A stretch of DNA of 64,000 nucleotides from Gammaproteobacteria bacterium. Lineage in GTDB: Bacteria > Pseudomonadota > Gammaproteobacteria > Eutrophobiales > Eutrophobiaceae. The notes under the pieces were generated by a model, which saw only the letters and a list, made by a program, of their open reading frames with translations, had not been told where the DNA came from and ran no database searches. The stretch spans positions 2,852,616 through 2,916,615 of the forward strand of contig OZ241853.1 in assembly GCA_965202685.1 (NCBI GenBank), given 5' to 3'. Numbering within the stretch: the stretch's first letter is position 1; each line of letters begins with the position of its first letter. The position numbers were made by a program, and so were the translations under genes. Below, piece by piece: positions 2,302 through 14,432 of this stretch.

Positions 2302-3555
2302 TTAGGGATGGAAAAACAGGCGCAGACCCAGATAGAAAACGGCGAACAGCGACAAGGCCCAGAGGCAGGCGAGGCTGTACCGCGTCAGGGCCGCGCTGGG
2401 TCTGGCGGTTGCCGGCACGGCTGGCGCGTGCATGGCCCGGTGGATCAGCCAGGCGAACACCGGCGCGGCCACGAATGCCAAAGTGGTGGCGAAATCGATC
2501 AGGGTTTTGAAGGAGCCGATGAAAAACAACAGGATGGCTATGGCCCCCAGGCCCATGGCGACCACAAAGCCGGCGTAAATCCTGAATTGGGCGGTGTCCG
2601 AGCCGAGCTGAGGACGATAGCAGGCCAACAGGGCGGCGAAGCCGCGGGGGAAGCCGTCATGCACGACGATGACGGTTGACAGCATGGCGGCGAAGGCCGC
2701 CAACGCGACAACGGGTCTGGCCCAGTCTCCCAAAGTGGTTGCGTAGATGTCGATCAGCTGGGAGGAAAACGCCGCGGCGCCGGCGGCGAATTCCTTGCCT
2801 GAGCCGTGCATCACGGCGGCTCCTAAGGCCATGAAACACAGGGCCAAGGCCAGGGTTGAGAAGTAGCCGACATGGTAGTCCTGCCGGATTTCACGGATGG
2901 TCAGGGACTGGCTTTTTTTCTTTTCCAGCACCCATAATGACTGCCAGAGACAAGTCTCAAAAGGCGCTGGCATCCACCCCACCAGGGCCGCTAAAAACAA
3001 CAGCGCCGGCCTGTTCAGCACCTCCGGGGTGAACACATCGGCGGCCCGCCAGTCGATCAGGGGCAGAGACGCCGCCGTCGCGATGAGCGTGGAAACGAAG
3101 AGGACGATCACCAAGACTTTCACCATCCGATCCAGCCATCGGTAGCGCCCCAGGATGAGACAGGCGCCCGTGAAGGCCACCAGGGCGGCGGCGATGACGC
3201 CAATGGACAAGTCCAGTCCAAAACTGATCTTCGCCAGCCCGGAGGTGATCAGCGCAATGGCGGCGAAGCCGGTGAACATGACGCCGAGCATGATGAAGCC
3301 GCACAACGCCAGGGCCCAGTTTCCCTCTTTCTTGAAACCCTCCAGCAGATGTTGGCCTGTGGCGTGGGCGTACTCATGTCCGAAGCGGAAGGTCGGATAT
3401 TTCATGACGAACGCCAAGACAACGAACAACAGCAAGTCCATGCCGAACAAGGCGCCGGCCCGGGTTGACTGCACCAGGTGGGAGACCCCGATGCAAACGG
3501 CGGCCAAGAGCAGGCCGGGGCCTAGGATGGCGAAAAATCGGCGGTTGAATTTCAT
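2302..3555 (-). CDS. NRAMP/MntH-like family membrane transporter
   Basis: About 11 hydrophobic segments; N-terminal LGPGLLLAAVCIGVSHLVQSTRAGA typical of NRAMP-like proteins. Confidence 0.8.
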   Translation of the reverse strand: MKFNRRFFAILGPGLLLAAVCIGVSHLVQSTRAGALFGMDLLLFVVLAFVMKYPTFRFGHEYAHATGQHLLEGFKKEGNWALALCGFIMLGVMFTGFAAIALITSGLAKISFGLDLSIGVIAAALVAFTGACLILGRYRWLDRMVKVLVIVLFVSTLIATAASLPLIDWRAADVFTPEVLNRPALLFLAALVGWMPAPFETCLWQSLWVLEKKKSQSLTIREIRQDYHVGYFSTLALALCFMALGAAVMHGSGKEFAAGAAAFSSQLIDIYATTLGDWARPVVALAAFAAMLSTVIVVHDGFPRGFAALLACYRPQLGSDTAQFRIYAGFVVAMGLGAIAILLFFIGSFKTLIDFATTLAFVAAPVFAWLIHRAMHAPAVPATARPSAALTRYSLACLWALSLFAVFYLGLRLFFHP

Positions 3556-3599: not shown

Positions 3600-4619
3600 T
3601 CAGAAGCGCGGACGACATTCGGTGAAAGTCCGCCCGAACCACGACTTGAAGGCGGATGAAAAACTGGGCAGGTTGGAGAAGCCAAGCATGTAGGTGATTT
3701 GCGTTGCGCTGAGTTCGGGATTTTGAAGGTACTCCAGAACCAGTTCCTTTCTCGCCTCTTCGCGCAAACGATGGAAACTTGTTTGCTCTTCTTGCAGTTT
3801 TCTTTGCAAGGTTCGGGCGCTCATGTTCAGGCTCGAGGCGATGTGGTCAATGGAGAAATCGCCGCTGCCCAGGGTTTGCAACACCCTCAGTTTCACCCGC
3901 AACGACAGGTGCTGATTTTCACTAAGGGAATGCAGGTAGTCGTTGCACAATTTGTCCTGGTAGTTCGCCAGTTGGGCGTTGGCGCTGGGCAACGGGATTT
4001 CAACGGCGGCGCGGGAAAAACGCAAGGCGTAGTTTTCAGCCTCGCAGAGCAGGGGCGCCTGCGTCAACTTTTTGAACGACGCCGTGTATTGGCCCTCGCT
4101 CCAGGGGACTTCCACGGCCGTCGGGGAGAATTCCGGCCCGCATAGTTCCCGGCAGATTTTCAATATGAACAGCGTCAGGACGTCGCTGGTGATGTGACTC
4201 TTGACCGGGCGCAAATCTTCTATGGCGAAGATGAATTCATTTTTCGTTTTCAGGGTTGACATCATTACCGATGAGCTGATGACCTCGCGGTAGGCGCAAA
4301 GGCGGTTGAGCAAGTCTTCAATGGAATGACTGGCGTACAGCCCAAAGCCCAAGGCGTGGAATGAACTCGCGTTGAGATATTGGGTGATTTTTTCCGCCAG
4401 GATGGCGCTGTCGGCGACGCTGCTTTCGGCGATTTGCCAAACATGCTGCATTTTCGCCACGGGATTGCGAATGTGTGATTTCCCCTGGTCGTCAGGATTC
4501 AACCCGCAGTCAAGAAACACCTGCCTGCCGTCAATCCCTAAGGCCTGCAACGCCAGCAGGACGGCGCGGCCCCAGCCGCTAATGGAAGTCCCAAGATGCA
4601 AATCGGCGACTTTGTTCAT
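3600..4619 (-). CDS. AraC family transcriptional regulator (N-terminal ligand-binding domain)
   Basis: C-terminal IASSLNMSARTLQRKL...LGFSNLPSFSSAFKSWFG double HTH; divergent from the TonB receptor. Confidence 0.93.
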   Translation of the reverse strand: MNKVADLHLGTSISGWGRAVLLALQALGIDGRQVFLDCGLNPDDQGKSHIRNPVAKMQHVWQIAESSVADSAILAEKITQYLNASSFHALGFGLYASHSIEDLLNRLCAYREVISSSVMMSTLKTKNEFIFAIEDLRPVKSHITSDVLTLFILKICRELCGPEFSPTAVEVPWSEGQYTASFKKLTQAPLLCEAENYALRFSRAAVEIPLPSANAQLANYQDKLCNDYLHSLSENQHLSLRVKLRVLQTLGSGDFSIDHIASSLNMSARTLQRKLQEEQTSFHRLREEARKELVLEYLQNPELSATQITYMLGFSNLPSFSSAFKSWFGRTFTECRPRF

Positions 4620-4722
4620 CAGGTTGGCGCATTAAATAAATAGAGTAGCGCGATATATTAAATTAGATTCGGGGGGTTGTGAAAACATAAATAGGTCTGA
4701 TTGGCTTTATGGAGGCACGCAA

Positions 4723-6975
4723 ATGAAAACTCGTTTTTTGCTCGTTCCCGCCTCGCTTCTGCTCCTGGCCGGCCAGGGCGTCGCCCAAGCCGTTCTGGAG
4801 GAAGTGACCGTAACCGCCCGGAAAAGGGCTGAATCCCTTGCCGATGTGCCGATTTCGATTTCGGTGACCGCCGGCGAGAAGCTCGAACAGATGTCCCTGC
4901 GGGGCCTAGAGGAGCTTTCCGGCTTCACGCCGAACTTGCAGGTCAATGAAAACGCGACCCAGCAGACGGTGACGATCCGGGGGATAGGCTCCGGCGCGAA
5001 TCAGGCCTTTGAACAGTCAGTCGGCACCTACATAGACGGGGTGTATTTCGGCCGTGGCCGCTCGGCCCGGAACCCGTTTTTCGATGTGGAGCGGGTGGAA
5101 ATTCTAAAAGGGCCTCAAGGCATACTCTTTGGCAAAAACACCATTGCGGGGGCCATCAATGTCACGACCCGCAAGCCGACGGAAGAGACTGAGGGCTACC
5201 TGGAAGGCGAGTACTTTTCCGAAACGGATCAATGGGGGGTGACAGGCGTGGTTTCCGGCCCTCTCGCGGACAATTTCTTCGGGCGGTTGGCGGCCAATTA
5301 CAAGTCTGAAGGAGGCTATGTCAGCAACTCGTTCACTGGCGGCGATGAGGCCGACCGGGATGAGTATGTGATCAGGGGGACTCTGGTGTGGGAGACCGAC
5401 AAACTGCAAGCGGTCTTGAAGGGCGAGTTTTCTTCTTATGATGTCAAGGGCAGGACGGCGCAGAATGTGGCGGCAGGCCCGCTGGCGGGCTTGTACGCCG
5501 GCTTTGACCCTGAGTTTGAATCGAACCTGGATTTCAACAGCTCCACGCCCGGCGACGACTTTGACAACACGGACACGGGCAACGGCACCCTGTCCATAGA
5601 TTATGACTTGACCGATGATTTGACGCTGACTTCGGTCACCTCGTATGTTGAATACGATTTCAACAACAACATACCCGCCGAGTTCGCTCCTGTGGTGGAT
5701 TACGCCGAACAGGCGAACCTGCAGGAGCATGAGCAATTTTCAGAAGAATTGCGCCTGCATTTCGTCTCTCCGGACGCCCGGTTCGAATTCCTGGGGGGAC
5801 TTTATTACCAGTCCGAGAAATTGGGCATAGAGGAATCCTTCCATTTCAATCTGTCCAAACTGATTGATGAGGGCGTGAATCTGTTCCCCCTGAACTCCAC
5901 CATCATCACCTTCTATGACCAGGACACGGAAAGCTTCGCAGCCTTTGGCGAGGGTAGCTACGACATTCTCGACCGGCTGACCTTGTCCGTGGGCTTGCGC
6001 TACACCCATGATGAAAAAGAGGTGGACAAGGAGCTCCTTGTGGCCGCCCTGGGAACGCAGACCCGGGCCCCCGGACAAGAGCCGCTGGCCCGCATTATCG
6101 GCCGCGTTCCCCATGCCTACAGCCTGGAGCGGACCGACACTGATCTGTCCCCGTCTGTGGGGATTCAATTCGAAGTGAGCGATGGCTCCATGCTCTACGC
6201 CACCTATTCCGAGGGCTTCAAGGCGGGCGGGTTCGATGCCCAAAATGTGGGCGGCGCCCTGGATCTGGCGGCGTTTGAGCCGGAAGAAGCGAAGGCGTAC
6301 GAGATCGGCGGCAAGTTGACTTTCGGCGGCGGCGCGGCCAAGCTGAACATCGCGTACTTTCACAACGAGTATGTCGATTTGCAGGTCGCCGCCTGGAACG
6401 GGCTGGTTTTCACGGTGCAGAACGCGGCCTCCGCGACTTCCCAGGGGGTGGAGCTTGATGGCCAATGGCAGGTGACGGACAACTTTGTTTTAGGGGGAGC
6501 CTTGGCCTGGTTGGACGCGGAATACGACCGCTTCCTCAACGCGACTTGCACCGCGCCGCAACAAACGGCCTTCGCCGCCGCCACCGGGATGCCTCCCGGC
6601 CGTTGCGTTCAGGACTTGTCCGGCGCCGACTTGCAATTCTCGCCGGAGCTCGCCGGCAATGTGAACGCGGCGTATTCGATGCCGGTCATGGGTGATTATC
6701 AGCTGACCCTGCAGGGGGATGTCAACTTCACCAGCAGCTACCACACGGCGCTGGATCTAGACCCCCTGGCCCGGCAGGACGGGTTCGCGAAACTCAACCT
6801 CAGGGCGGAGCTGGCGGGAGGCGATGGCCGCTGGAGCGTGGCGGTGGTGGGCAAGAATCTCACCGATGAGAAGACCACGACCTGGGTGAACGATGTGCCT
6901 GTCTTCCGGGGCGCTTATTTCGGTTTTATCGACCCGCCGCGATCGGTGGGGGTGCAGGCCCGGGTTTCAATGTAA
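4723..6975 (+). CDS. TonB-dependent receptor
   Basis: Signal peptide, LEEVTVTARKR TonB box, RVEILKGPQGILFGKN plug motif, GGAGG SD. Confidence 0.95.
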   Translation: MKTRFLLVPASLLLLAGQGVAQAVLEEVTVTARKRAESLADVPISISVTAGEKLEQMSLRGLEELSGFTPNLQVNENATQQTVTIRGIGSGANQAFEQSVGTYIDGVYFGRGRSARNPFFDVERVEILKGPQGILFGKNTIAGAINVTTRKPTEETEGYLEGEYFSETDQWGVTGVVSGPLADNFFGRLAANYKSEGGYVSNSFTGGDEADRDEYVIRGTLVWETDKLQAVLKGEFSSYDVKGRTAQNVAAGPLAGLYAGFDPEFESNLDFNSSTPGDDFDNTDTGNGTLSIDYDLTDDLTLTSVTSYVEYDFNNNIPAEFAPVVDYAEQANLQEHEQFSEELRLHFVSPDARFEFLGGLYYQSEKLGIEESFHFNLSKLIDEGVNLFPLNSTIITFYDQDTESFAAFGEGSYDILDRLTLSVGLRYTHDEKEVDKELLVAALGTQTRAPGQEPLARIIGRVPHAYSLERTDTDLSPSVGIQFEVSDGSMLYATYSEGFKAGGFDAQNVGGALDLAAFEPEEAKAYEIGGKLTFGGGAAKLNIAYFHNEYVDLQVAAWNGLVFTVQNAASATSQGVELDGQWQVTDNFVLGGALAWLDAEYDRFLNATCTAPQQTAFAAATGMPPGRCVQDLSGADLQFSPELAGNVNAAYSMPVMGDYQLTLQGDVNFTSSYHTALDLDPLARQDGFAKLNLRAELAGGDGRWSVAVVGKNLTDEKTTTWVNDVPVFRGAYFGFIDPPRSVGVQARVSM

Positions 6976-6984
6976 AATCGCTCC

Positions 6985-8553
6985 ATGGGCCGCTTGTGGT
7001 TGCTTTGTTTGTGCCTCGCCGGGGGGGCTTGCGCCAACCTTTGCCTGGCTGCGCCTGACAAGCCGCCGAATGTCCTGTTCATCCTCACCGACAATCAGGC
7101 GGCCAGCCTGTTAGGCGCCTACGGCAATCCCGAAGTCAGGACGCCCCATGTGGACCGGCTGGCCCGGGAGGGAATCAAGTTCAATCGCGCCTACGCGGTC
7201 AACGGCATGTGTTCTCCCACCCGCGCCACCTTGATGACGGGCCTGATGCCGTCTCAACACGGTGTGCATAACTGGTTAGACGACGAGATGTTGGATCAGT
7301 GGCCCCGGAACTGGTCGGCGGTGGCGGAGTTTCGCACCTTGCCGCTGACGCTGAAAAACCGGGGGTATGACACGGCCCTGGTGGGGAAATGGCACCTGGG
7401 ACAGCCTTGGCGGCCGTCCATAGGCTACGATCACTGGGTCACCTTCACGGACGGGCACACGGTGGATTTCTGGGACAACACGGTGATCGACAACGGCAAG
7501 CAATACCAGGTCGCCGGCCGGCACATCGTGGATTTTTTCACCGACAAGGCTGTGGAATACATCAAGCAGCATGACGGCGAGAAGCCGTTTTATCTGCAAC
7601 TTAACTATGACGGCCCTTATGTCAACCCTCCCACCAATATGGGGCCGGCGCGCAACCGCTTTTACCAGGACTACGCGGGGCGGGAATTCAAGTCATTCCC
7701 GCGGGTCGCCTTCAATCAGAACATGGTTGACCAGCTGATCGACGAGGACAAGAAGAATCCCTTTATGACGGAAAAAATACGGCAGGGCATCGCCATGCAC
7801 AACGATCCGGCGACTATGGCCAATGTGGCCTCGCAGAACACCCTGGTGGATGACGGCGTCGGCAAGGTGTTGGCGGCCCTCAAGGAAGCCGGGCTGGAGG
7901 ACAGCACCATAGTCGTCTATTCATCGGACCAGGGCAACTTTTACGGGCAACATGGCCTGTGGATGCACACGGTGGTCACCACTCCGTCCAATCTGCACGA
8001 GACCGCCATGAACATTCCGTTGATCGCGCGGCATCCGGACAAGATCCAGCCGGGGCAGGTCAGCGATGAGTTGATAGGGCAATACGACGTGCCGGTGACC
8101 CTGCTGGATTATCTTGGGATCAGGGATGCGGCTTTCGCCAACACTCCCGGCAAGAGCTTCAGCGCTATCCTGCGGGGCGAGCCAGCAGAGGGAAATAAAG
8201 CGGTGTTCTTCGAGCAGGAGGAGACCCGGGGAGTGAGAACGGCGCGGTTTTCCTACTGGAAGCGACTGGAAACCACCGGCGAGCCGGAACTCTACGACAT
8301 GGCTAAGGACCCGGGGCAACACGCCAATGTTCACGGCCACCCCGAGTACGCCGCTATCGCCGCCGAGCTGGACCGGAAGCTGACCCGTTTTTTCAACCGC
8401 TATTCCGACAAGCAATATGACTTGTGGCGGGGGGGTACGGCGAAAGGCTCCGTCGTCAGGCCGGAGATGTTTCGCCGGATTTACGGGGAAGGCTGGACCA
8501 CGAAAGCGGAGCTGAAACCCCCATTCACTGAAGCGAACACGGGGCAGAGATAG
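6985..8553 (+). CDS. Formylglycine-dependent (Cys-type) sulfatase, exported
   Basis: PNVLFILTD, CSPTRATLMTG (CxPxR), GKWHLG, SDQG; signal peptide. Confidence 0.93.
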   Translation: MGRLWLLCLCLAGGACANLCLAAPDKPPNVLFILTDNQAASLLGAYGNPEVRTPHVDRLAREGIKFNRAYAVNGMCSPTRATLMTGLMPSQHGVHNWLDDEMLDQWPRNWSAVAEFRTLPLTLKNRGYDTALVGKWHLGQPWRPSIGYDHWVTFTDGHTVDFWDNTVIDNGKQYQVAGRHIVDFFTDKAVEYIKQHDGEKPFYLQLNYDGPYVNPPTNMGPARNRFYQDYAGREFKSFPRVAFNQNMVDQLIDEDKKNPFMTEKIRQGIAMHNDPATMANVASQNTLVDDGVGKVLAALKEAGLEDSTIVVYSSDQGNFYGQHGLWMHTVVTTPSNLHETAMNIPLIARHPDKIQPGQVSDELIGQYDVPVTLLDYLGIRDAAFANTPGKSFSAILRGEPAEGNKAVFFEQEETRGVRTARFSYWKRLETTGEPELYDMAKDPGQHANVHGHPEYAAIAAELDRKLTRFFNRYSDKQYDLWRGGTAKGSVVRPEMFRRIYGEGWTTKAELKPPFTEANTGQR

Positions 8554-8557
8554 ACTT

Positions 8558-10366
8558 GTGCTGACCTGGCGCAACTCTTTTTTCTGGCCCCTGGCGGTGG
8601 CGACCCTGATCTCAACGCCCGCTGTTGGCGAGAACATCGCCTATGACAAGCCATCTCCCAAGATTCATCCCCGCTTAACCGCGCACTCGCAGATCATGGC
8701 GAAGAAGATTTACCGCGTCCGGGACAATGTATATATCGCCTACGGCTACGGCCTGGCGAACAGCGCGATGATCGTAGGCGACGACGGCGTCATCATCATC
8801 GATGTCATGGAAGATCTGGAGCGCGGCCAAGAGGTGTTGGGCGAGTTTCGTAAGATCACCGACAAGCCGGTGAAGGCCATCGTCTATTCGCACAACCATA
8901 TCGACCATGTCGGCGGCGCGCGGGCCTTTGCCAGCCCGGAAGAGGTCGCTTCCGGCAAGGTGAAAGTCATCGCGCACTCCTCGCTGATGGACGCCGTTGT
9001 GAACTGGGCCGGCACGGTGGCCCCCATCCTGGGGCGGCGTTCATCTTATTTCGCCGGCTCTTTTCTGGAGCGGGGGCCGGAAGGCTGGGTGAACATGGGC
9101 ATAGGCCCGCGCATATTCACCGGACAGCCGACCTTGTTGCCGCCGAATCTGACTTTTGACGACAGCCTGGAGTTGACCATCGCGGGCGTTGAGATGCGCA
9201 TTGTCCATGTGCCAAGCGAAACCGACGATGAGATCGTGGTCTGGTTTCCGGGTTTGAAGGTCTTGCAAACGGCGGAGGTCTTGCAGGGCGAGGCGTTTCC
9301 CAATCTGCACACCATGCGCGGCACGAAGTATCGGGATCCCGTGAAATGGTACAAGGCGGTCGATGTGTTGCGGACCTTCCCCGCGCAACACATGGCGCCC
9401 TCCCACGGCAGACCTGTCCATGGCTACGACAATATCCAAGCAGTGCTGACGAATTACCGCGACGCCATTCAGTATGTCCATGATCAGTCCATTCGCCTGA
9501 TGAACAAGGGCGCGCTCCCGGAAGATCTGGCGGCGTTGGTCAAGTTGCCTCCCCACTTGGCCAATCACCCGTGGTTGGGCGAGTTCTATGGTTCGGTGAA
9601 AAATTCAGTGCGGCAGTTTTATTCGGGCTACATAGGCTGGTACCAGGGCGACCCTTGGGAAGTGGACAGATTGCCCCCTTTGCGCCGCGCGGCGCGCTAT
9701 GTCAGGGCCATGGGGGGGCGAGACGCGGTGCTTGACGAGGCCAAACAGGCCATTGATAAAGGCGAACCCACCTGGGCCGCTGAAATCCTCACTTATTTGC
9801 TGCGCATGGACGCCGAAGACCAGGAGGCGCGCCTCCTCAAGGCCCGGGCCTTGCGAGAATGGGGCTATGAGCAAATCACTTCCACCTGGAGAAACTGGGC
9901 CCTCACCGCGGCGAAAGAGCTGGAAGGCGACTTGCCCGCTGGGGCGGGCATTATGAAGAGCTCCCCCGACATCGCCAACGCCATTCCAAGCGGCAGAATG
10001 GCGGAGCTGTTGTCCACCCGGTTGAAGGCGGAGCAATGCGGGGAAGTCCGGCAACTCGTGGGGATGGTCATTGCCGACACTGGGGAGGCTTTTGCCCTCG
10101 AACTGAGGCGGGGGATTGCCGAGTTTCACCCTGAGTTGCCGGACGATGCCGTTGAGACAATCCGGCTTGTTCGTCAACAGCTGGTGGATCTCTTCATAGG
10201 CAAGCGCAGCCTGGCAGACATAGTGGAGCAGGCGGATCCGGTTGCGATAGCGGGAAGCCGTGACAAGATCGCGGCGTTTGCTTCCTGTTTCGAAACCCCG
10301 GACCGAGGGGCCATCACCTTGAGCGTCCCGGTGGATTTCGGCTATAGTGAGGTGGATGACCTTTAA
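8558..10366 (+). CDS. SdsA1/BDS1-like alkyl/aryl sulfatase (metallo-beta-lactamase fold), exported
   Basis: HNHIDH, PSETDD, FPNLHTMRGTKYRD, PSHG; dimerisation and SCP2-like C-terminus; signal peptide. Confidence 0.9.
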   Translation: MLTWRNSFFWPLAVATLISTPAVGENIAYDKPSPKIHPRLTAHSQIMAKKIYRVRDNVYIAYGYGLANSAMIVGDDGVIIIDVMEDLERGQEVLGEFRKITDKPVKAIVYSHNHIDHVGGARAFASPEEVASGKVKVIAHSSLMDAVVNWAGTVAPILGRRSSYFAGSFLERGPEGWVNMGIGPRIFTGQPTLLPPNLTFDDSLELTIAGVEMRIVHVPSETDDEIVVWFPGLKVLQTAEVLQGEAFPNLHTMRGTKYRDPVKWYKAVDVLRTFPAQHMAPSHGRPVHGYDNIQAVLTNYRDAIQYVHDQSIRLMNKGALPEDLAALVKLPPHLANHPWLGEFYGSVKNSVRQFYSGYIGWYQGDPWEVDRLPPLRRAARYVRAMGGRDAVLDEAKQAIDKGEPTWAAEILTYLLRMDAEDQEARLLKARALREWGYEQITSTWRNWALTAAKELEGDLPAGAGIMKSSPDIANAIPSGRMAELLSTRLKAEQCGEVRQLVGMVIADTGEAFALELRRGIAEFHPELPDDAVETIRLVRQQLVDLFIGKRSLADIVEQADPVAIAGSRDKIAAFASCFETPDRGAITLSVPVDFGYSEVDDL

Positions 10367-11606
10367 GCGCGCCGGTTCGTTGCTTGTTTTGCTGTTCCTG
10401 TGGGGTTGCGAGGCCGAGGGGCCGCCGGCGACGGGGGCATTGCCTGCCGGGTCCGGCGAGACGGCTGAGGCGACTGGCTTTCGAGATGTGAGCAAAGAGG
10501 CCTTGACCAAGGATGTCTATGGCAAGGTTGAGGCCCTGCCGGAGCGCTTGCATCCCCACTGGGTGTGGGTGACCGATTTCGCTGGTAGCGCCATGCCGGA
10601 CGGGCGCGCCTATTTGTATGACGGGGACACTGGCCGCATGTTGGGCATGTTGAACACGGGTTACTCCTTTAACGCCTTGAACATGCCCAAGCATTACCGG
10701 GAAGTGTATTCCGCTGAAACCTACTATTCGCGGACGACCCGGGGGCAACGCACAGATGTTGTCAGCGTGTATGACCCCTTTAAGTTGTCACCGGTCGCGG
10801 AAGTGGAAATTCCCCCCAAGCGCGCCTCCACCATCCCGCGGCTGGCGGACTCGGCGTTGACTGATGATGACCGGTTCCTGTCGGTGTTCAATTTGACCCC
10901 GGCGGCCTCCCTGAGCATCGTGGATGTGGTGGAAAGGAAATTCACCGCGGAGATCATGACGCCGGGGTGCGCCATGGCTTACGCGGCGGGAGACCGGCGC
11001 TTCTTCGCGCTGTGCGGCGATGGCTCATTGATGATGGTGACCCTCACCGATGCCGGTGAACAGGCCGCCATTGAAAAGAGCGCTCCTTTCTTTGACGCGC
11101 ACAAGGATCCGATTCTGGAGACCGGGGCGCGCCTGGGCGACGCCTGGCTCTTTGTCTCGGTGTTGGGGAAAATCCATATTGTGGACCTCGCCGGCGAACA
11201 GCCGGCGTTTCCCGAACCCTGGTCCTATTTGACCGCGGCGGAGCAAAAAGCCAACTGGCGCGCCGGCGGCTTGCAGCCCATTGCCTTGCACGAGGCCAAC
11301 CAGCGCTTGTATTTGCTGATGCGCCAAGGAGATTTTTTCAGTTATGAAAGCCCGGGGCCTGAGATCTGGGTGTATGACCTGAAGACGCGGAAACAGCTCA
11401 GAAAAATAAAGACCCGCCAGCCCAGCTTGTCCATCGCCGTGAGCCAGGATGAAGCCCCCTTGCTTTACGCCATTACTGAGAGCCTGAATCAGCTGGATAT
11501 TTACGACAGCGCCGGGCGACATCTCCGCTCAGTCCCCGAGCTTGGGATCATGACGGCCTTGATTCAGGTGCCGCCGTTGCAGGCGGCAGGGGGAGCGAAC
11601 AGATGA
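10356..11606 (+). CDS. TTQ amine dehydrogenase large (beta-propeller) subunit, MauB/AauB-like, putative lipoprotein
   Basis: AETYYSRTTRGQRTDVV, FNLTPAASLSIVD, PGC...LCGDG, EIWVYDL motifs; lipobox LWGC; ATG 10356 follows GAGGTGG. Confidence 0.9.
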   Translation: MTFKRAGSLLVLLFLWGCEAEGPPATGALPAGSGETAEATGFRDVSKEALTKDVYGKVEALPERLHPHWVWVTDFAGSAMPDGRAYLYDGDTGRMLGMLNTGYSFNALNMPKHYREVYSAETYYSRTTRGQRTDVVSVYDPFKLSPVAEVEIPPKRASTIPRLADSALTDDDRFLSVFNLTPAASLSIVDVVERKFTAEIMTPGCAMAYAAGDRRFFALCGDGSLMMVTLTDAGEQAAIEKSAPFFDAHKDPILETGARLGDAWLFVSVLGKIHIVDLAGEQPAFPEPWSYLTAAEQKANWRAGGLQPIALHEANQRLYLLMRQGDFFSYESPGPEIWVYDLKTRKQLRKIKTRQPSLSIAVSQDEAPLLYAITESLNQLDIYDSAGRHLRSVPELGIMTALIQVPPLQAAGGANR

Positions 11607-12142
11607 TGAGTGTGAATTTCGACCGGTGGTTTCAGGGGAAGGCCCGTTCCTTGGCCCGTCTTGCCTCCCGCAGGGGCTTTTTGCGGAAAACCGGCCTCTT
11701 GTTAGTCGGCGCCTCAGGGGCCATGCCCCTGTTGCCGGTGGCGCGGGCGAACGCGGCGCCGGAAGAAGCGCCGGATGACAGCGCCATTGCCGGCGCCGCG
11801 GGGGACCCCGGCAAATGCGATTACTGGCGCAACTGCGGCATGGATGGTTTTCTATGCGGTTGTTGCGGGGGCACCCATGTTAGTTGCCCCCCAGGCACCG
11901 AAATGGCTCCCATGACCTGGATAGGCGTTTGCAAAAATCCGGCGGATGGGCGCGATTACATCATCGCCTATAACGACTGTTGCGGCAAAAGCACCTGCAA
12001 CCGTTGCATGTGCAACCGCAACGAGGGGGACCTGCCCAATTATTTTCCGCCTAAGAGCAACGACATCAACTGGTGCATGGGGTCGTCCAACAATGTGTAC
12101 CACTGCACCACCACCTTGCTCCTGGGGCTGTCGGTCAAGTAG
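11603..12142 (+). CDS. TTQ amine dehydrogenase small subunit, AauA/MauA-like
   Basis: Tat motif SRRGFL; CDYWRNC..DG..C..CGG..CPPG..W..C.NP...DCCG...NDINWC with both TTQ Trp residues; ATGA overlap with the large subunit gene. Confidence 0.95.
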   Translation: MMSVNFDRWFQGKARSLARLASRRGFLRKTGLLLVGASGAMPLLPVARANAAPEEAPDDSAIAGAAGDPGKCDYWRNCGMDGFLCGCCGGTHVSCPPGTEMAPMTWIGVCKNPADGRDYIIAYNDCCGKSTCNRCMCNRNEGDLPNYFPPKSNDINWCMGSSNNVYHCTTTLLLGLSVK

Positions 12143-12157
12143 GCGAGCCTTGTCGCC

Positions 12158-12982
12158 TCAGGCGCGCTGGCGTTCCTTGATCTCGTCTATGGTCTTGCAA
12201 TCTATGCAGAGCGTCGCCGTGGGCCTGGCCTCAAGGCGTTTAACGCCGATCTCCACGCCGCAGACTTCGCAATAACCGTAATCTCCCGTTTCCAAAGTGA
12301 TCAACGATTCGTTGATCTTCTTAATGAGTTTACGCTCGCGGTCCCGCGTCCTCAACTCCAAGGCGAACTCCTCTTCCTGGGTGGCTCGGTCGTTGGGGTC
12401 GGGGAAGTTGGAAGCCTCATCCTGCATGTGATGGACGGTTCTTTCCACTTCTTCCATGAGGGTTTGTTTCCAGTTTATCAACAGCTTGCGGAAGTGCTGG
12501 CTCTGTTTTGCATTCATGTATTCCTCCCCCTGTTTCTCTTGGTAGGGAGAGATCGCCTTCTTGGGCGCATCGGTTGTTTCCACCACCGGCGTCTTCGGCG
12601 CGGCGGGCTTTTTCTTGGCGCTGGCGGGTTTCTTCGGCGCGGCGGGCTTTTTCTTGGCGATGACGGGTTTCTCCGGCGTCGCGGACTTTTCCTTCTTGGC
12701 GACGGCGGGTTTCTTCGGCGCGGCGGACTTTTCCTTCTTGGCGACGGCGGGTTTCTTCGGCGCGGCGGGCTTTTTCTTGGCGACAGCGGGCTTCTTCGGC
12801 GCAATGGGCTTTTTCTCGGCGCCGGCAGGCTCCTTTGGCGCCGCCGTTTGCTTCTTTTCAGCAGGGGCAGGGGGCTTTAGCGCCGCCGTTTTTTTCTTTT
12901 CAACGGCGGTGGTCTTTGCCACTCGTTTTTTGGACGCGACAGGCTTCTTTCGCGTCGTTGCATTTTTCGTCTTGGCAACCAT
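12158..12982 (-). CDS. dksA: RNA polymerase-binding protein DksA with long Lys/Ala/Pro-rich N-terminal extension
   Basis: EEYMN...[31 protein letters not shown] and C4 zinc finger CEVC...CIDC; start chosen from the GGAG SD. Confidence 0.93.
12590..12850 (-). repeat. Coding tandem repeats (about 36-42 bp; [13 protein letters not shown]-like) within dksA
   Basis: Repeated ttcttcggcgcggcgggctttttcttggcg units. Confidence 0.9.
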
Positions 12983-13153
12983 TTTCATCACTCCACGCCG
13001 GCAGTCCGCATGATGCGAAAAGCCCTGAACGGGGCCCCTTGCGCCCCCTTGGCCGGCGCCTATGAGCGTTTCAGGGCCGGACAGCACTCCGTCAATCAAG
13101 TCGCTCTTATTTTACAACATTTGTCAGCATTGCAACCCTGCGTCCGCCCGCTG

Positions 13154-13537
13154 TCAAGGCATGGCCTGGGGGGGACGCCACCCTTCCTGCTGATGCTCCA
13201 CGGTGACCGAAGTGTGGATCCCGCCGCGCACATTGAACTCCGCCGTCAGTTTGATGTAGCGGGGAGAGAGGGCCGCCATCAGATCCGTCAGGATTTTGTT
13301 GGTCACCGCTTCATGGAACGCGCCTTGGTCGCGGTAGGACCAAATATAGAGTTTAAGCGATTTCAATTCAACGCAGAGCCGGTCCGGGACATACTGAAGG
13401 CGCAGGGTGGCGAAATCCGGTTGCCCGGTCATGGGGCACAAGCAGGTGAACTCCGGCAGGGTCATGTCTATGGTGTAGTCCCGCCCCGGCTCCGGGTTGT
13501 CAAAGGTCTGCAAATGGTCTGAGGGCTTTGCCGCCAT
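13154..13537 (-). CDS. queF: preQ1 synthase QueF (type I, short)
   Basis: [34 protein letters not shown]. Confidence 0.96.
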
Positions 13538-13646
13538 GTTTTCATCCGCCTTGTGGGGGGAGTCCATGATACCCTGAAGGAATCCGGATAAGAAGCCGGT
13601 TTCGGGTTGTTTGGGGAATTGCGCAACACCATGAACGAGGCGAAAA

Positions 13647-14432
13647 ATGAGAAAATGGCTGCTGATTTTGGCTCTGTCCTGTCCCGCCCAGGCGGACAAG
13701 CTCTTCGACGGCGAATGGATTGATTTGACGCACGAGTTTTCCGAAGAGACCATTTACTGGCCGACTGCGGAGCCATTCAAGATGGAGACGGTTTTTCAAG
13801 GGCGCGCTGAGGCGGGTTTTTACTACGAGGCGCATAGTTTCAGCGCCGCTGAGCATGGCGGCACGCACCTGGACGCGCCGATTCACTTCGCTGAAAACCG
13901 CCACACCTTGGAGCAAGTGCCGGTGGAGCAGCTGATCGGCCCGGGCGCGCTCATCAGAATTGCGGAAAAAGTGAAGGAAAACCGCAACTATCAGCTTTCC
14001 GTTGAGGATGTTTTGCGCTGGGAAAAGGACAATGGGGAGATAGCGGAAGACAGCATCCTGCTTGTTGACACGGGTTCAAGCAAATTATGGCCGGATCTGG
14101 AGAAATACCTGGGAACAAGTGAACGAGGCCCAGGGGCCCTCGCCCAATTGAAGTTCCCTGGCATTCACCCCGAGGCGGCCGAATTTTTAGCGACCAAGAG
14201 GAAGGTGAAAGCGGTGGGACTGGATTCCCCCAGCATTGATTTTGGCGGTTCCAAGTTGTTCGAATCCCACCAGATCTTATTCGAGAGGAACATCCCCGGC
14301 ATGGAAAATGTGGCCAACCTTGACCGGTTGCCCCTCAAGGGCTTCACGGTTATCGCCCTGCCCATGAAAATAAAAGGCGGCAGCGGCGGCCCCTTGCGCG
14401 TTGTCGCGTTCCTCCCAAGCGGGCGAAAATAA
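13647..14432 (+). CDS. Cyclase family (kynurenine formamidase-like) protein with signal peptide
   Basis: [28 protein letters not shown]...[15 protein letters not shown]. Confidence 0.92.

Follow-up and report, generated by a model that had tools for sequence, protein, structure and literature searches.

The window analysed here is a 64,000-nucleotide stretch of the genome of a gammaproteobacterium of the family Eutrophobiaceae (GenBank assembly GCA_965202685.1, contig OZ241853.1, positions 2,852,616 to 2,916,615). It carries five co-directional genes that encode a TonB-dependent outer-membrane receptor (TBDR), two unrelated sulfatases, and the heavy and light subunits of a tryptophan tryptophylquinone (TTQ) amine dehydrogenase, all divergent from a gene for an AraC-family regulator. 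We think it probable that this putative operon is a recent, species-specific and co-expressed fusion of two modules with independent functions, namely an organosulfate uptake and desulfation cassette and a resident amine dehydrogenase. The fusion is present in several strains, and among the genus genomes that we examined it is unique to the one that holds the window (G000; 2.97 Mb, single contig, 96.3% complete).

The gene order and identities are as first described in an earlier note on this DNA, and the scores, motifs, leaders and spacing given below bear out the identities, the periplasmic location of the products and the tight coupling that it reported. The minus-strand AraC-family gene (3600..4619; HTH_18 60.6 bits, Arabinose_bd 59.4 bits), itself a cassette member, is separated from the operon by a 103 bp divergent intergenic region (4620..4722) that we presume from its position to be the cassette promoter/operator. 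On the plus strand follow the TBDR (4723..6975; Plug 61.6 bits, TonB_dep_Rec_b-barrel 157.8 bits); a formylglycine (S1) sulfatase with an N-terminal leader (6985..8553; Sulfatase, PF00884, 150.6 bits against a cut-off of 25, and SGSH_C, 61.8 bits); an SdsA-type (metallo-beta-lactamase) alkylsulfatase (8558..10366; Lactamase_B, PF00753, 70.2 bits, Alkyl_sulf_dimr, PF14863, 142.1 bits, and Alkyl_sulf_C, PF14864, 45.6 bits); the heavy (propeller) subunit of the TTQ dehydrogenase, a predicted lipoprotein (10356..11606; Me-amine-dh_H, PF06433, 172.5 bits); and its light, cofactor-carrying subunit, with a Tat-type leader (11603..12142; Me-amine-dh_L, PF02975, 160.9 bits). Every one of these domain scores is well clear of its Pfam threshold. 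The five genes are separated by gaps of 9 and 4 bp and then overlap by 11 and 4 bp, a single-operon layout whose spacing leaves no room for internal promoters or terminators, and we expect all five to be co-transcribed. The heavy-subunit start is placed at ATG 10356, with a GTG at 10347 also open, and is preceded by a GAGG motif; the SdsA stop codon (TAA, 10364-10366) lies downstream of this start. A consensus scan was uninformative, finding 5 promoter-like sites against 3.0 +/- 1.9 in shuffled sequence and 18 terminator-like sites against 11.8 +/- 3.4; the 103 bp divergent region holds one promoter-like match (minus strand, 4683-4655), a site count not above that of shuffled sequence.

The two modules occur apart in related genomes. 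A heavy-subunit match is found in 21 of 22 congeneric genomes and a near-full-length orthologue (63-72% identity) in 18, and we compared the 18 orthologous TTQ loci (L053-L070) together with ~10 kb upstream of each. All 18 lie in one neighbourhood, with an acyl-CoA ligase and an Nramp gene on one side and/or a DksA-SMC pair on the other; DksA-SMC comes after the TTQ pair in 17, and in the remaining locus (L070) the contig ends first. In relatives the Nramp gene is a divergent neighbour of the heavy orthologue, lying no more than ~0.2-0.35 kb from it in three genomes (G010, G019, G004) and ~1 kb away in a fourth (G003). These same anchors stand outside the operon in the window, as an Nramp-family transporter gene (2302..3555, minus strand; Pfam Nramp 66 bits) and a convergent dksA that marks the operon end (12158..12700, end approximate, minus strand; DksA domains in residues 183-313 of the open reading frame (ORF) 12158-13099). 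None of the 18 loci has a sulfatase or SdsA match beside its TTQ genes, nor does a TTQ fragment from a further genome (G017, L096). In a heavy-subunit tree of 46 rows, from which L087-L089 were left out for want of a usable heavy match, the G000 copy falls with the 18 genus orthologues in a clade with 100/100 support.

The cassette has a different distribution. Scanning genome contigs with SdsA gave 7 loci, and an orthologous AraC-TBDR-sulfatase-SdsA cassette is present in four relatives (G010, G004, G009 and G017; SdsA 75-77% identity), the first three of which match G000 at 70% identity in AraC and 77% in the TBDR. In these three (L016-L018) the cassette ends with SdsA, followed in G010 (L016) by a convergent DegP-like gene, and no TTQ genes lie within its 10-kb flanks; on a short contig of G017 (L019) it likewise ends with SdsA, then a convergent ORF, and no TTQ genes are found. 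Cassette and TTQ genes are ~1 Mb apart in G010 and ~0.1 Mb apart in G004 and G009. The genes that flank the G010 cassette are 28 bp apart in G000 (near 1,829,400), an empty site, and the flanks of the G004 cassette are different ones, which map elsewhere in G000. The five cassette-bearing genomes thus hold it in at least three contexts, only G000 having it between Nramp and the TTQ genes, and judged by these placements the cassette is relocatable. Inspected by eye, neither the ends of the cassette nor the window Pfam matches showed repeats or genes of mobile elements, and no systematic repeat search was made. The earlier note had set recurrence in other genomes as a test of its proposal, and within the genus the combination largely fails to recur: 0 of 18 TTQ loci and 0 of 4 orthologous cassettes have it.

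The fusion junction (10338..10366, plus strand) can be read from the alignment with these relatives. The last codons of the G000 SdsA gene are unlike those of its relatives, the protein ending ...PVDFGYSEVDDL* and running into the heavy-subunit start, where the G010 protein ends ...PVDLADLAN*, and its TAA overlaps the heavy ATG by 11 bp. In G010 ~326 bp separates the divergent Nramp and heavy genes, and none of this upstream region is retained in G000. Among the 15 orthologues whose start could be placed, 8 share an element (TTGAA-N17-TATA(G/C)AT) 30-60 nt before the ATG, and this too is absent from G000. By this comparison the insertion, or fusion, did away with the region that natively precedes the dehydrogenase genes, and with that region and the shared element lost, the heavy and light genes most likely depend on cassette transcription.

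The stretch is present in 20 run entries from 9 studies, with labels that include sponge metagenome and marine metagenome, and these runs fit a host-associated setting. We compared the contigs of four runs (X3, X4, X5 and X7) with the window. The SdsA/heavy junction is bridged by contigs from three of them, each from a different study: a 6,741 bp contig of X3 (5050-11790, 0 differences), a contig of X5 (8979-10568, 27 differences) and a contig of X7 (3614-10419, 134 differences), the latter two ~98% identical to the window and so representing strains ~2% diverged from it. The X4 assembly does not bridge the junction, one contig ending at 10365 and the next beginning at 10791. In X7, one short contig also connects 3641 with 10370 and another connects 10460 with 12046 (depths of ~10 beside ~14). 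They hint at a coexisting variant that lacks the cassette and has little left of the TTQ genes, keeping a 90-bp remnant; each join is seen in one contig, with short sides of 28 and 37 letters.

Under our preferred reading, the first module would be a relocatable, AraC-controlled cassette that imports an organosulfate through the TBDR and removes the sulfate in the periplasm by means of two unrelated hydrolases, the formylglycine S1 sulfatase and the SdsA-type zinc alkylsulfatase. The second would be a chromosomal, genus-wide primary-amine dehydrogenase resembling aromatic amine dehydrogenase (AADH), its heavy subunit anchored as a lipoprotein and its light subunit exported by the Tat route, converting a primary amine to aldehyde and ammonium, with the electrons handed on to a cytochrome c or a cupredoxin of the periplasm, encoded outside the operon (candidates in G000 are a cytochrome c at a second TTQ locus and one cupredoxin match). 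The cassette would have inserted between the Nramp and dehydrogenase genes, at the cost of the latter's own upstream region and with the SdsA stop coming to overlap the heavy start, and amine oxidation would now most likely be expressed from the cassette promoter, alongside sulfate-ester uptake. Several observations weigh against this reading. The precision of the overlap, the survival of the fusion across ~2% divergence, and a sulfatase-TTQ operon in two genomes outside the genus (G369 and G436, described below) fit a pathway for a single substrate at least as well as they fit a neutral or purely regulatory fusion. Just 5' of the heavy start there is a weak promoter-like sequence (TTGAGC-18-TATAGT, 10319-10348), and at 10257-10275 a weak terminator-like hairpin, both of classes not above shuffled controls. 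Finally, G000 has no MauG homologue, which leaves maturation of the dehydrogenase uncertain.

To place the combination in a wider context we surveyed light-chain matches in two samples of genomes. In the class sample of 400, in which G283 went unscored, 14 genomes matched, including G000 and G331, whose locus was not compared; in the phylum sample of 401, 9 matched, including G000 and G238, the latter already in the class sample. We compared 23 TTQ loci from 19 genomes outside the genus. The usual gene order among them is heavy-(mauE)-mauD-light-cytochrome c. A sulfatase was found near the TTQ genes in 1 of the 23 (L086, G369:C84:1-10935), in a screen that for the first sampled loci used one query and that very divergent sulfatases could escape. 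This locus consists of ten co-directional, tightly packed genes encoding, in order, a TBDR; an S1 sulfatase; an SDR-family protein; a class III aminotransferase (best match PRK06148/PRK06149); an APH-family kinase; an aldehyde dehydrogenase; the TTQ heavy and light subunits; a cytochrome c; and an MFS transporter. The same gene string, at 64-95% identity, is kept in a congener found by directed search (G436; L095, G436:C194:14000-31000). Heavy subunits of G369 and G436 form a 100/100 clade separate from that of G000, and the link between sulfatase and TTQ dehydrogenase therefore arose at least twice. The combination is seen in 0 of the 18 genus loci and 1 of the 23 outside the genus, with G436 in addition. 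On gene content the G369/G436 operon appears to be a better candidate than the window operon for catabolism of sulfated amino-alcohols or amines. A metagenome scan with the heavy subunit added only 2 loci, which are distant (33-40% identity) and aau-like, and neither of which has a sulfatase. In the literature searched, supplements aside, we found no paper linking a sulfatase with a TTQ amine dehydrogenase, and no pathway for sulfated amines in marine host-associated bacteria turned up.

The strongest alternative is that of the earlier note, a dedicated sulfated-amine pathway in which one molecule is imported, desulfated by the two sulfatases and then deaminated in the periplasm by the TTQ enzyme, the fusion having been selected because it completes a pathway. 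We regard it as unlikely, if a serious contender, and give about the same weight to the existence of one molecule bearing both sulfate and amine. Much of the layout agrees with it: all five products carry export leaders (by eye), the genes are tightly coupled, the native TTQ upstream region is lost, the fusion is retained in strains ~2% apart from three studies, and an independent TBDR-sulfatase-...-TTQ operon with a heavy subunit of a different clade exists in G369/G436. The best NCBIfam match of the AraC protein is QhpR, an amine-dehydrogenase regulator, though at 152.4 bits it is under the cut-off of 250. We put chance same-strand adjacency at ~1% per lineage, a rough estimate from 9 and 8 sulfatase matches in ~3-Mb genomes that is post hoc arithmetic and no test. 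Against a dedicated pathway stand the relocation of the cassette, the absence of the combination from all orthologous TTQ loci and cassettes in the genus, and the single sulfatase-bearing locus among the 23 outside it; the operon also has neither an aldehyde dehydrogenase nor an inner-membrane transporter. Thus the coupling, the exported products and the G369/G436 operon speak for the proposal that the operon imports, desulfates and deaminates one sulfated amine, and the separateness of the modules and the mobility of the cassette in relatives speak against it.

The company kept by related sulfatase pairs bears on the same question. Pairing of S1 sulfatase with SdsA is conserved, in two arrangements across the genus, and 13 genus genomes carry a paralogous pair (sulfatase 69-72%, SdsA 42-44% identity), whose two genes are neighbours in 12 of them. 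Divergent from this paralogous pair lie a small ORF (159-162 aa) and a gene for a 518-aa GMC oxidoreductase (L105 of G013, 8125-12041; L106 of G010, 8234-13910), and in another gammaproteobacterial metagenome-assembled genome (L022) a 58%-identical SdsA is followed by a pyrroloquinoline quinone (PQQ)/cytochrome c alcohol dehydrogenase. LaoA is a GMC-type enzyme, and the GMC pair presumably resembles LaoAB, the long-chain alcohol oxidation partners of sodium dodecyl sulfate degraders. Since these pairs, in keeping with known alkyl-sulfate systems, stand beside GMC or PQQ alcohol-oxidising enzymes, the products are argued to be alcohols, not amines, which counts against a dedicated sulfated-amine pathway.

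A broader proposal would take both lineages together. Two unrelated gammaproteobacterial lineages may have independently coupled TBDR import and a formylglycine sulfatase to a TTQ dehydrogenase, the sponge-associated window species by cassette insertion and promoter capture and G369/G436 by a 10-gene operon with a kinase/phospholyase-like pair and an aldehyde dehydrogenase, and so define unrecognised periplasmic pathways for sulfated amines or amino-alcohols, with MauG-free maturation of TTQ. Host-derived aminoalkyl or arylethylamine O-sulfates would be example substrates. Taken as a whole we find this doubtful, a shade more so than the dedicated pathway in the window species. If the fusion is functional, it may be a catabolic operon caught assembling, in which a mobile uptake-desulfation cassette captures a resident dehydrogenase, and sulfated amines would become a possible nutrient class for marine host-associated bacteria. 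The more modest reading also carries a lesson, in that tight linkage in one genome was poor evidence of a pathway and the comparative context altered its interpretation.

A second alternative, which we think improbable, is that cassette insertion cut the dehydrogenase genes from their promoter and that they are a silent or decaying passenger, no longer used. It is consistent with the loss of the native upstream region, with the short X7 contigs (weakly, at one contig each), with a small genome bearing other deletions (2.97 Mb, against 2.6-5.0 Mb in relatives) and with the lack of a MauG/CCP homologue in G000. This lack appears real within the 96.3% complete single contig: searches with TIGR03791 and PF03150 found nothing, tblastn of the genus SCO1-CCP protein gave no match, and only one ORF of at least 200 aa has two CxxCH motifs. 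It is not special to G000, PF03150 being absent also from G370, G043 and G705, three among five further genomes that have aau-like TTQ loci, and a MauG-like neighbour occurs in only 3 of the 23 sampled loci outside the genus (L080, L092, L104), which belong to another heavy-subunit clade. Further against a silent passenger, both reading frames are intact with all catalytic residues present, coupled translation is favoured by the overlap of the heavy start with the SdsA stop and by the GAGG in front of it, and the only CCP gene of the genus is an mtoX-linked SCO1 fusion.

That gene deserves separate mention. A CCP_MauG gene occurs in 19 of 22 congeners, as a single SCO1/SenC-CCP fusion adjoining SBP56 (in G010, L079, G010:C1:1962000-1979000), and the SCO1/SenC-CCP and SBP56 (mtoX-like) region is deleted in G000. 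We rejected it as a MauG candidate, since published work on methanethiol oxidase describes just such a fusion beside SBP56 (PMC5739008). TTQ enzymes in MauG-free genomes would either mature without MauG or be inactive, and three intact TTQ loci without MauG suggest that TTQ formation may be MauG-independent.

As the source seems to be a single contig assembled from a metagenome, we also considered a chimera of two unrelated regions. It has no point in its support that we could find and is a negligible prospect, rejected as far as contigs can show because those of X3, X5 and X7 bridge the junction and both outer flanks retain genus synteny.

The individual proteins were assigned from domains, motifs and solved relatives, with export signals (the leaders of the TBDR, sulfatase and SdsA-type enzyme, and the Tat-type and lipobox signals) judged by eye from the translations. 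Hydrophobic N-terminal leaders are visible on the TBDR, the sulfatase and the SdsA-type enzyme; no NCBIfam model reached its cut-off for the TBDR, and no NCBIfam equivalog was reached by the sulfatase. The latter carries the formylglycine motif C76-S-P-T-R80 (CSPTR), and two PF03781 matches elsewhere in G000, the better one (265 bits) in a 288-aa ORF outside the operon, are candidates for the formylglycine-generating enzyme (FGE); by its domain, CSPTR motif and an FGE in the genome the protein is a predicted S1-class sulfatase. Its closest solved relative is the N-acetylglucosamine-6-sulfatase 5g2v (177.6 bits), against 81 bits for the arylsulfatase 1hdh, and its nearest solved relatives in general are carbohydrate 6-O-sulfatases (5g2v and the mucin-desulfating sulfatase 7p24), not arylsulfatases. 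The specific substrates that the earlier note suggested (tyramine-, dopamine- or halotyramine-O-sulfate) find no evidence here. The SdsA-type enzyme has the zinc motif H112-N-H-I-D-H117 (HNHIDH), scores 264-273 bits against the solved enzymes 7tl5, 4nur, 4av7, 4pdx and 2cfu, and aligns over its full length with 7tl5, 4nur and 2cfu; a metallo-beta-lactamase domain with HxHxDH, a dimerisation domain and an SCP2-like C-terminal domain place it, as a prediction, in the SdsA-type alkylsulfatase class.

The light chain of the dehydrogenase has a Tat-type SRRGFL leader. The residues that form TTQ are established, and in the light chain W106 and W157 are spaced 51 residues apart; in the alignment with AADH 2agl_D these two are matched, as are D125 (the Asp that precedes the CC pair) and each of the 14 Cys. 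The heavy chain has the lipobox LFLWGC, conserved in orthologues. Gene and residue content together identify the pair as a predicted TTQ-dependent amine dehydrogenase. Its affinity was judged on bit scores only, the PDB sequences being outside the tree: the light chain scores 154.1 against AADH 2agl_D and ~125 against methylamine dehydrogenase (MADH) of the P. denitrificans type, the heavy chain 169.4 against AADH 2agl_A and 153.9 against MADH, and the MADH equivalogs TIGR02658 and TIGR02659 were not reached (183.2 against 454.45, and 163.7 against 196.85). G000 has three TTQ loci including that of the window, and at each of the others the light chain is just as AADH-like (148.6 and 170 bits), so the bias, being common to all three paralogues, is not informative on the window locus. 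The earlier suggestion that the small subunit is closer to AADH than to MADH therefore holds as a modest score lead, seen in both subunits, and lacks specificity to this locus.

In a survey of L053-L070 and L096, four loci of which the search pattern left unresolved, a lipoprotein signal of the form L-[A/F/W]-G-C followed by [E/D]-[A/G]-[E/Q] is present in the heavy subunit of G000 (10356-10420 region of the window) and of all 15 relatives with a placeable start. It is followed by a long linker rich in Ala, Gly, Pro and Glu. We know of no earlier description of a lipid-anchored TTQ dehydrogenase, and such lipoprotein-anchored heavy subunits, like TTQ dehydrogenases in MauG-free genomes, may be of interest for quinoprotein work.

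Four known systems resemble parts of the operon. The best solved match for both subunits is AADH of Alcaligenes faecalis (PDB 2agl and related entries); unlike it and most sampled loci, the operon has no mauE/mauD between its subunit genes and no cytochrome c gene after them, and unlike AADH its heavy subunit carries a lipoprotein signal. The single mauE/mauD copy of G000 is at another TTQ locus (locus A, below). Methylamine dehydrogenase, whose mau cluster provides MauG-dependent TTQ synthesis, belongs to the same two Pfam families and has the same cofactor-bearing fold, whereas the window pair is under both equivalog cut-offs and neither the locus nor G000 has a mauG. TBDR-linked S1 sulfatase loci for polysaccharide or mucin utilisation share the TBDR directly followed by an S1 sulfatase, with 5g2v and 7p24 as nearest structures; in contrast to them the operon has no glycoside hydrolase or SusD-like genes and pairs its sulfatase with an SdsA-type enzyme. 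Lastly, alkyl-sulfate clusters place an AraC/XylS regulator beside an operon coupling an alkyl sulfatase to dehydrogenases for the released product, the AraC-regulated slfRCHSL module being an example in which a sulfatase is linked to oxidation of the released alcohol (PMC10779009). An AraC-type regulator and sulfatase-dehydrogenase coupling are what the operon shares with the SLF module on a Psychrobacter plasmid (slfR-slfCHSL) and with SdsA1 and LaoABCR of Pseudomonas (PMC10779009). It differs from both in having an amine-specific TTQ enzyme rather than an alcohol/aldehyde dehydrogenase, and in adding a TBDR and a second, formylglycine-type sulfatase.

Some observations beyond the operon touch its two modules. 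G000 has 9 PF00884 matches in ~3 Mb and another TBDR-sulfatase pair at ~1.13 Mb, and on its minus strand a second sulfatase cluster (L108, G000:C1:1126000-1145000) comprises a sulfatase, an amidohydrolase, a 536-aa ORF without assigned function, a TBDR and a sulfatase; the cluster and the number of matches point to what may be an organosulfate-scavenging lifestyle. After the TTQ light gene of several relatives comes a Rieske/ring-hydroxylating-alpha-like protein and a ~490-aa Oxidored_FMN protein (L053, 11727-14627; L055, 11793-14658), genes that G000 and G009 do not have there. Of the two further TTQ loci in G000, locus A (~759 kb; L005, G000:C1:748000-767900) has the order TBDR-heavy-mauE-mauD-light with a divergent TetR gene. 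TBDR genes adjoin TTQ loci in other genomes too (L081, L103, L086), which suggests TonB-dependent uptake of amines or their precursors. Locus B (~2.72 Mb; L004, G000:C1:2714000-2733900) encodes a 535-aa heavy subunit, a light subunit and a 188-aa cytochrome c, and with its paaK-, paaZ- (Aldedh-MaoC) and paaI-like (thioesterase) neighbours and a TetR gene it looks like a route from phenylethylamine to phenylacetate.

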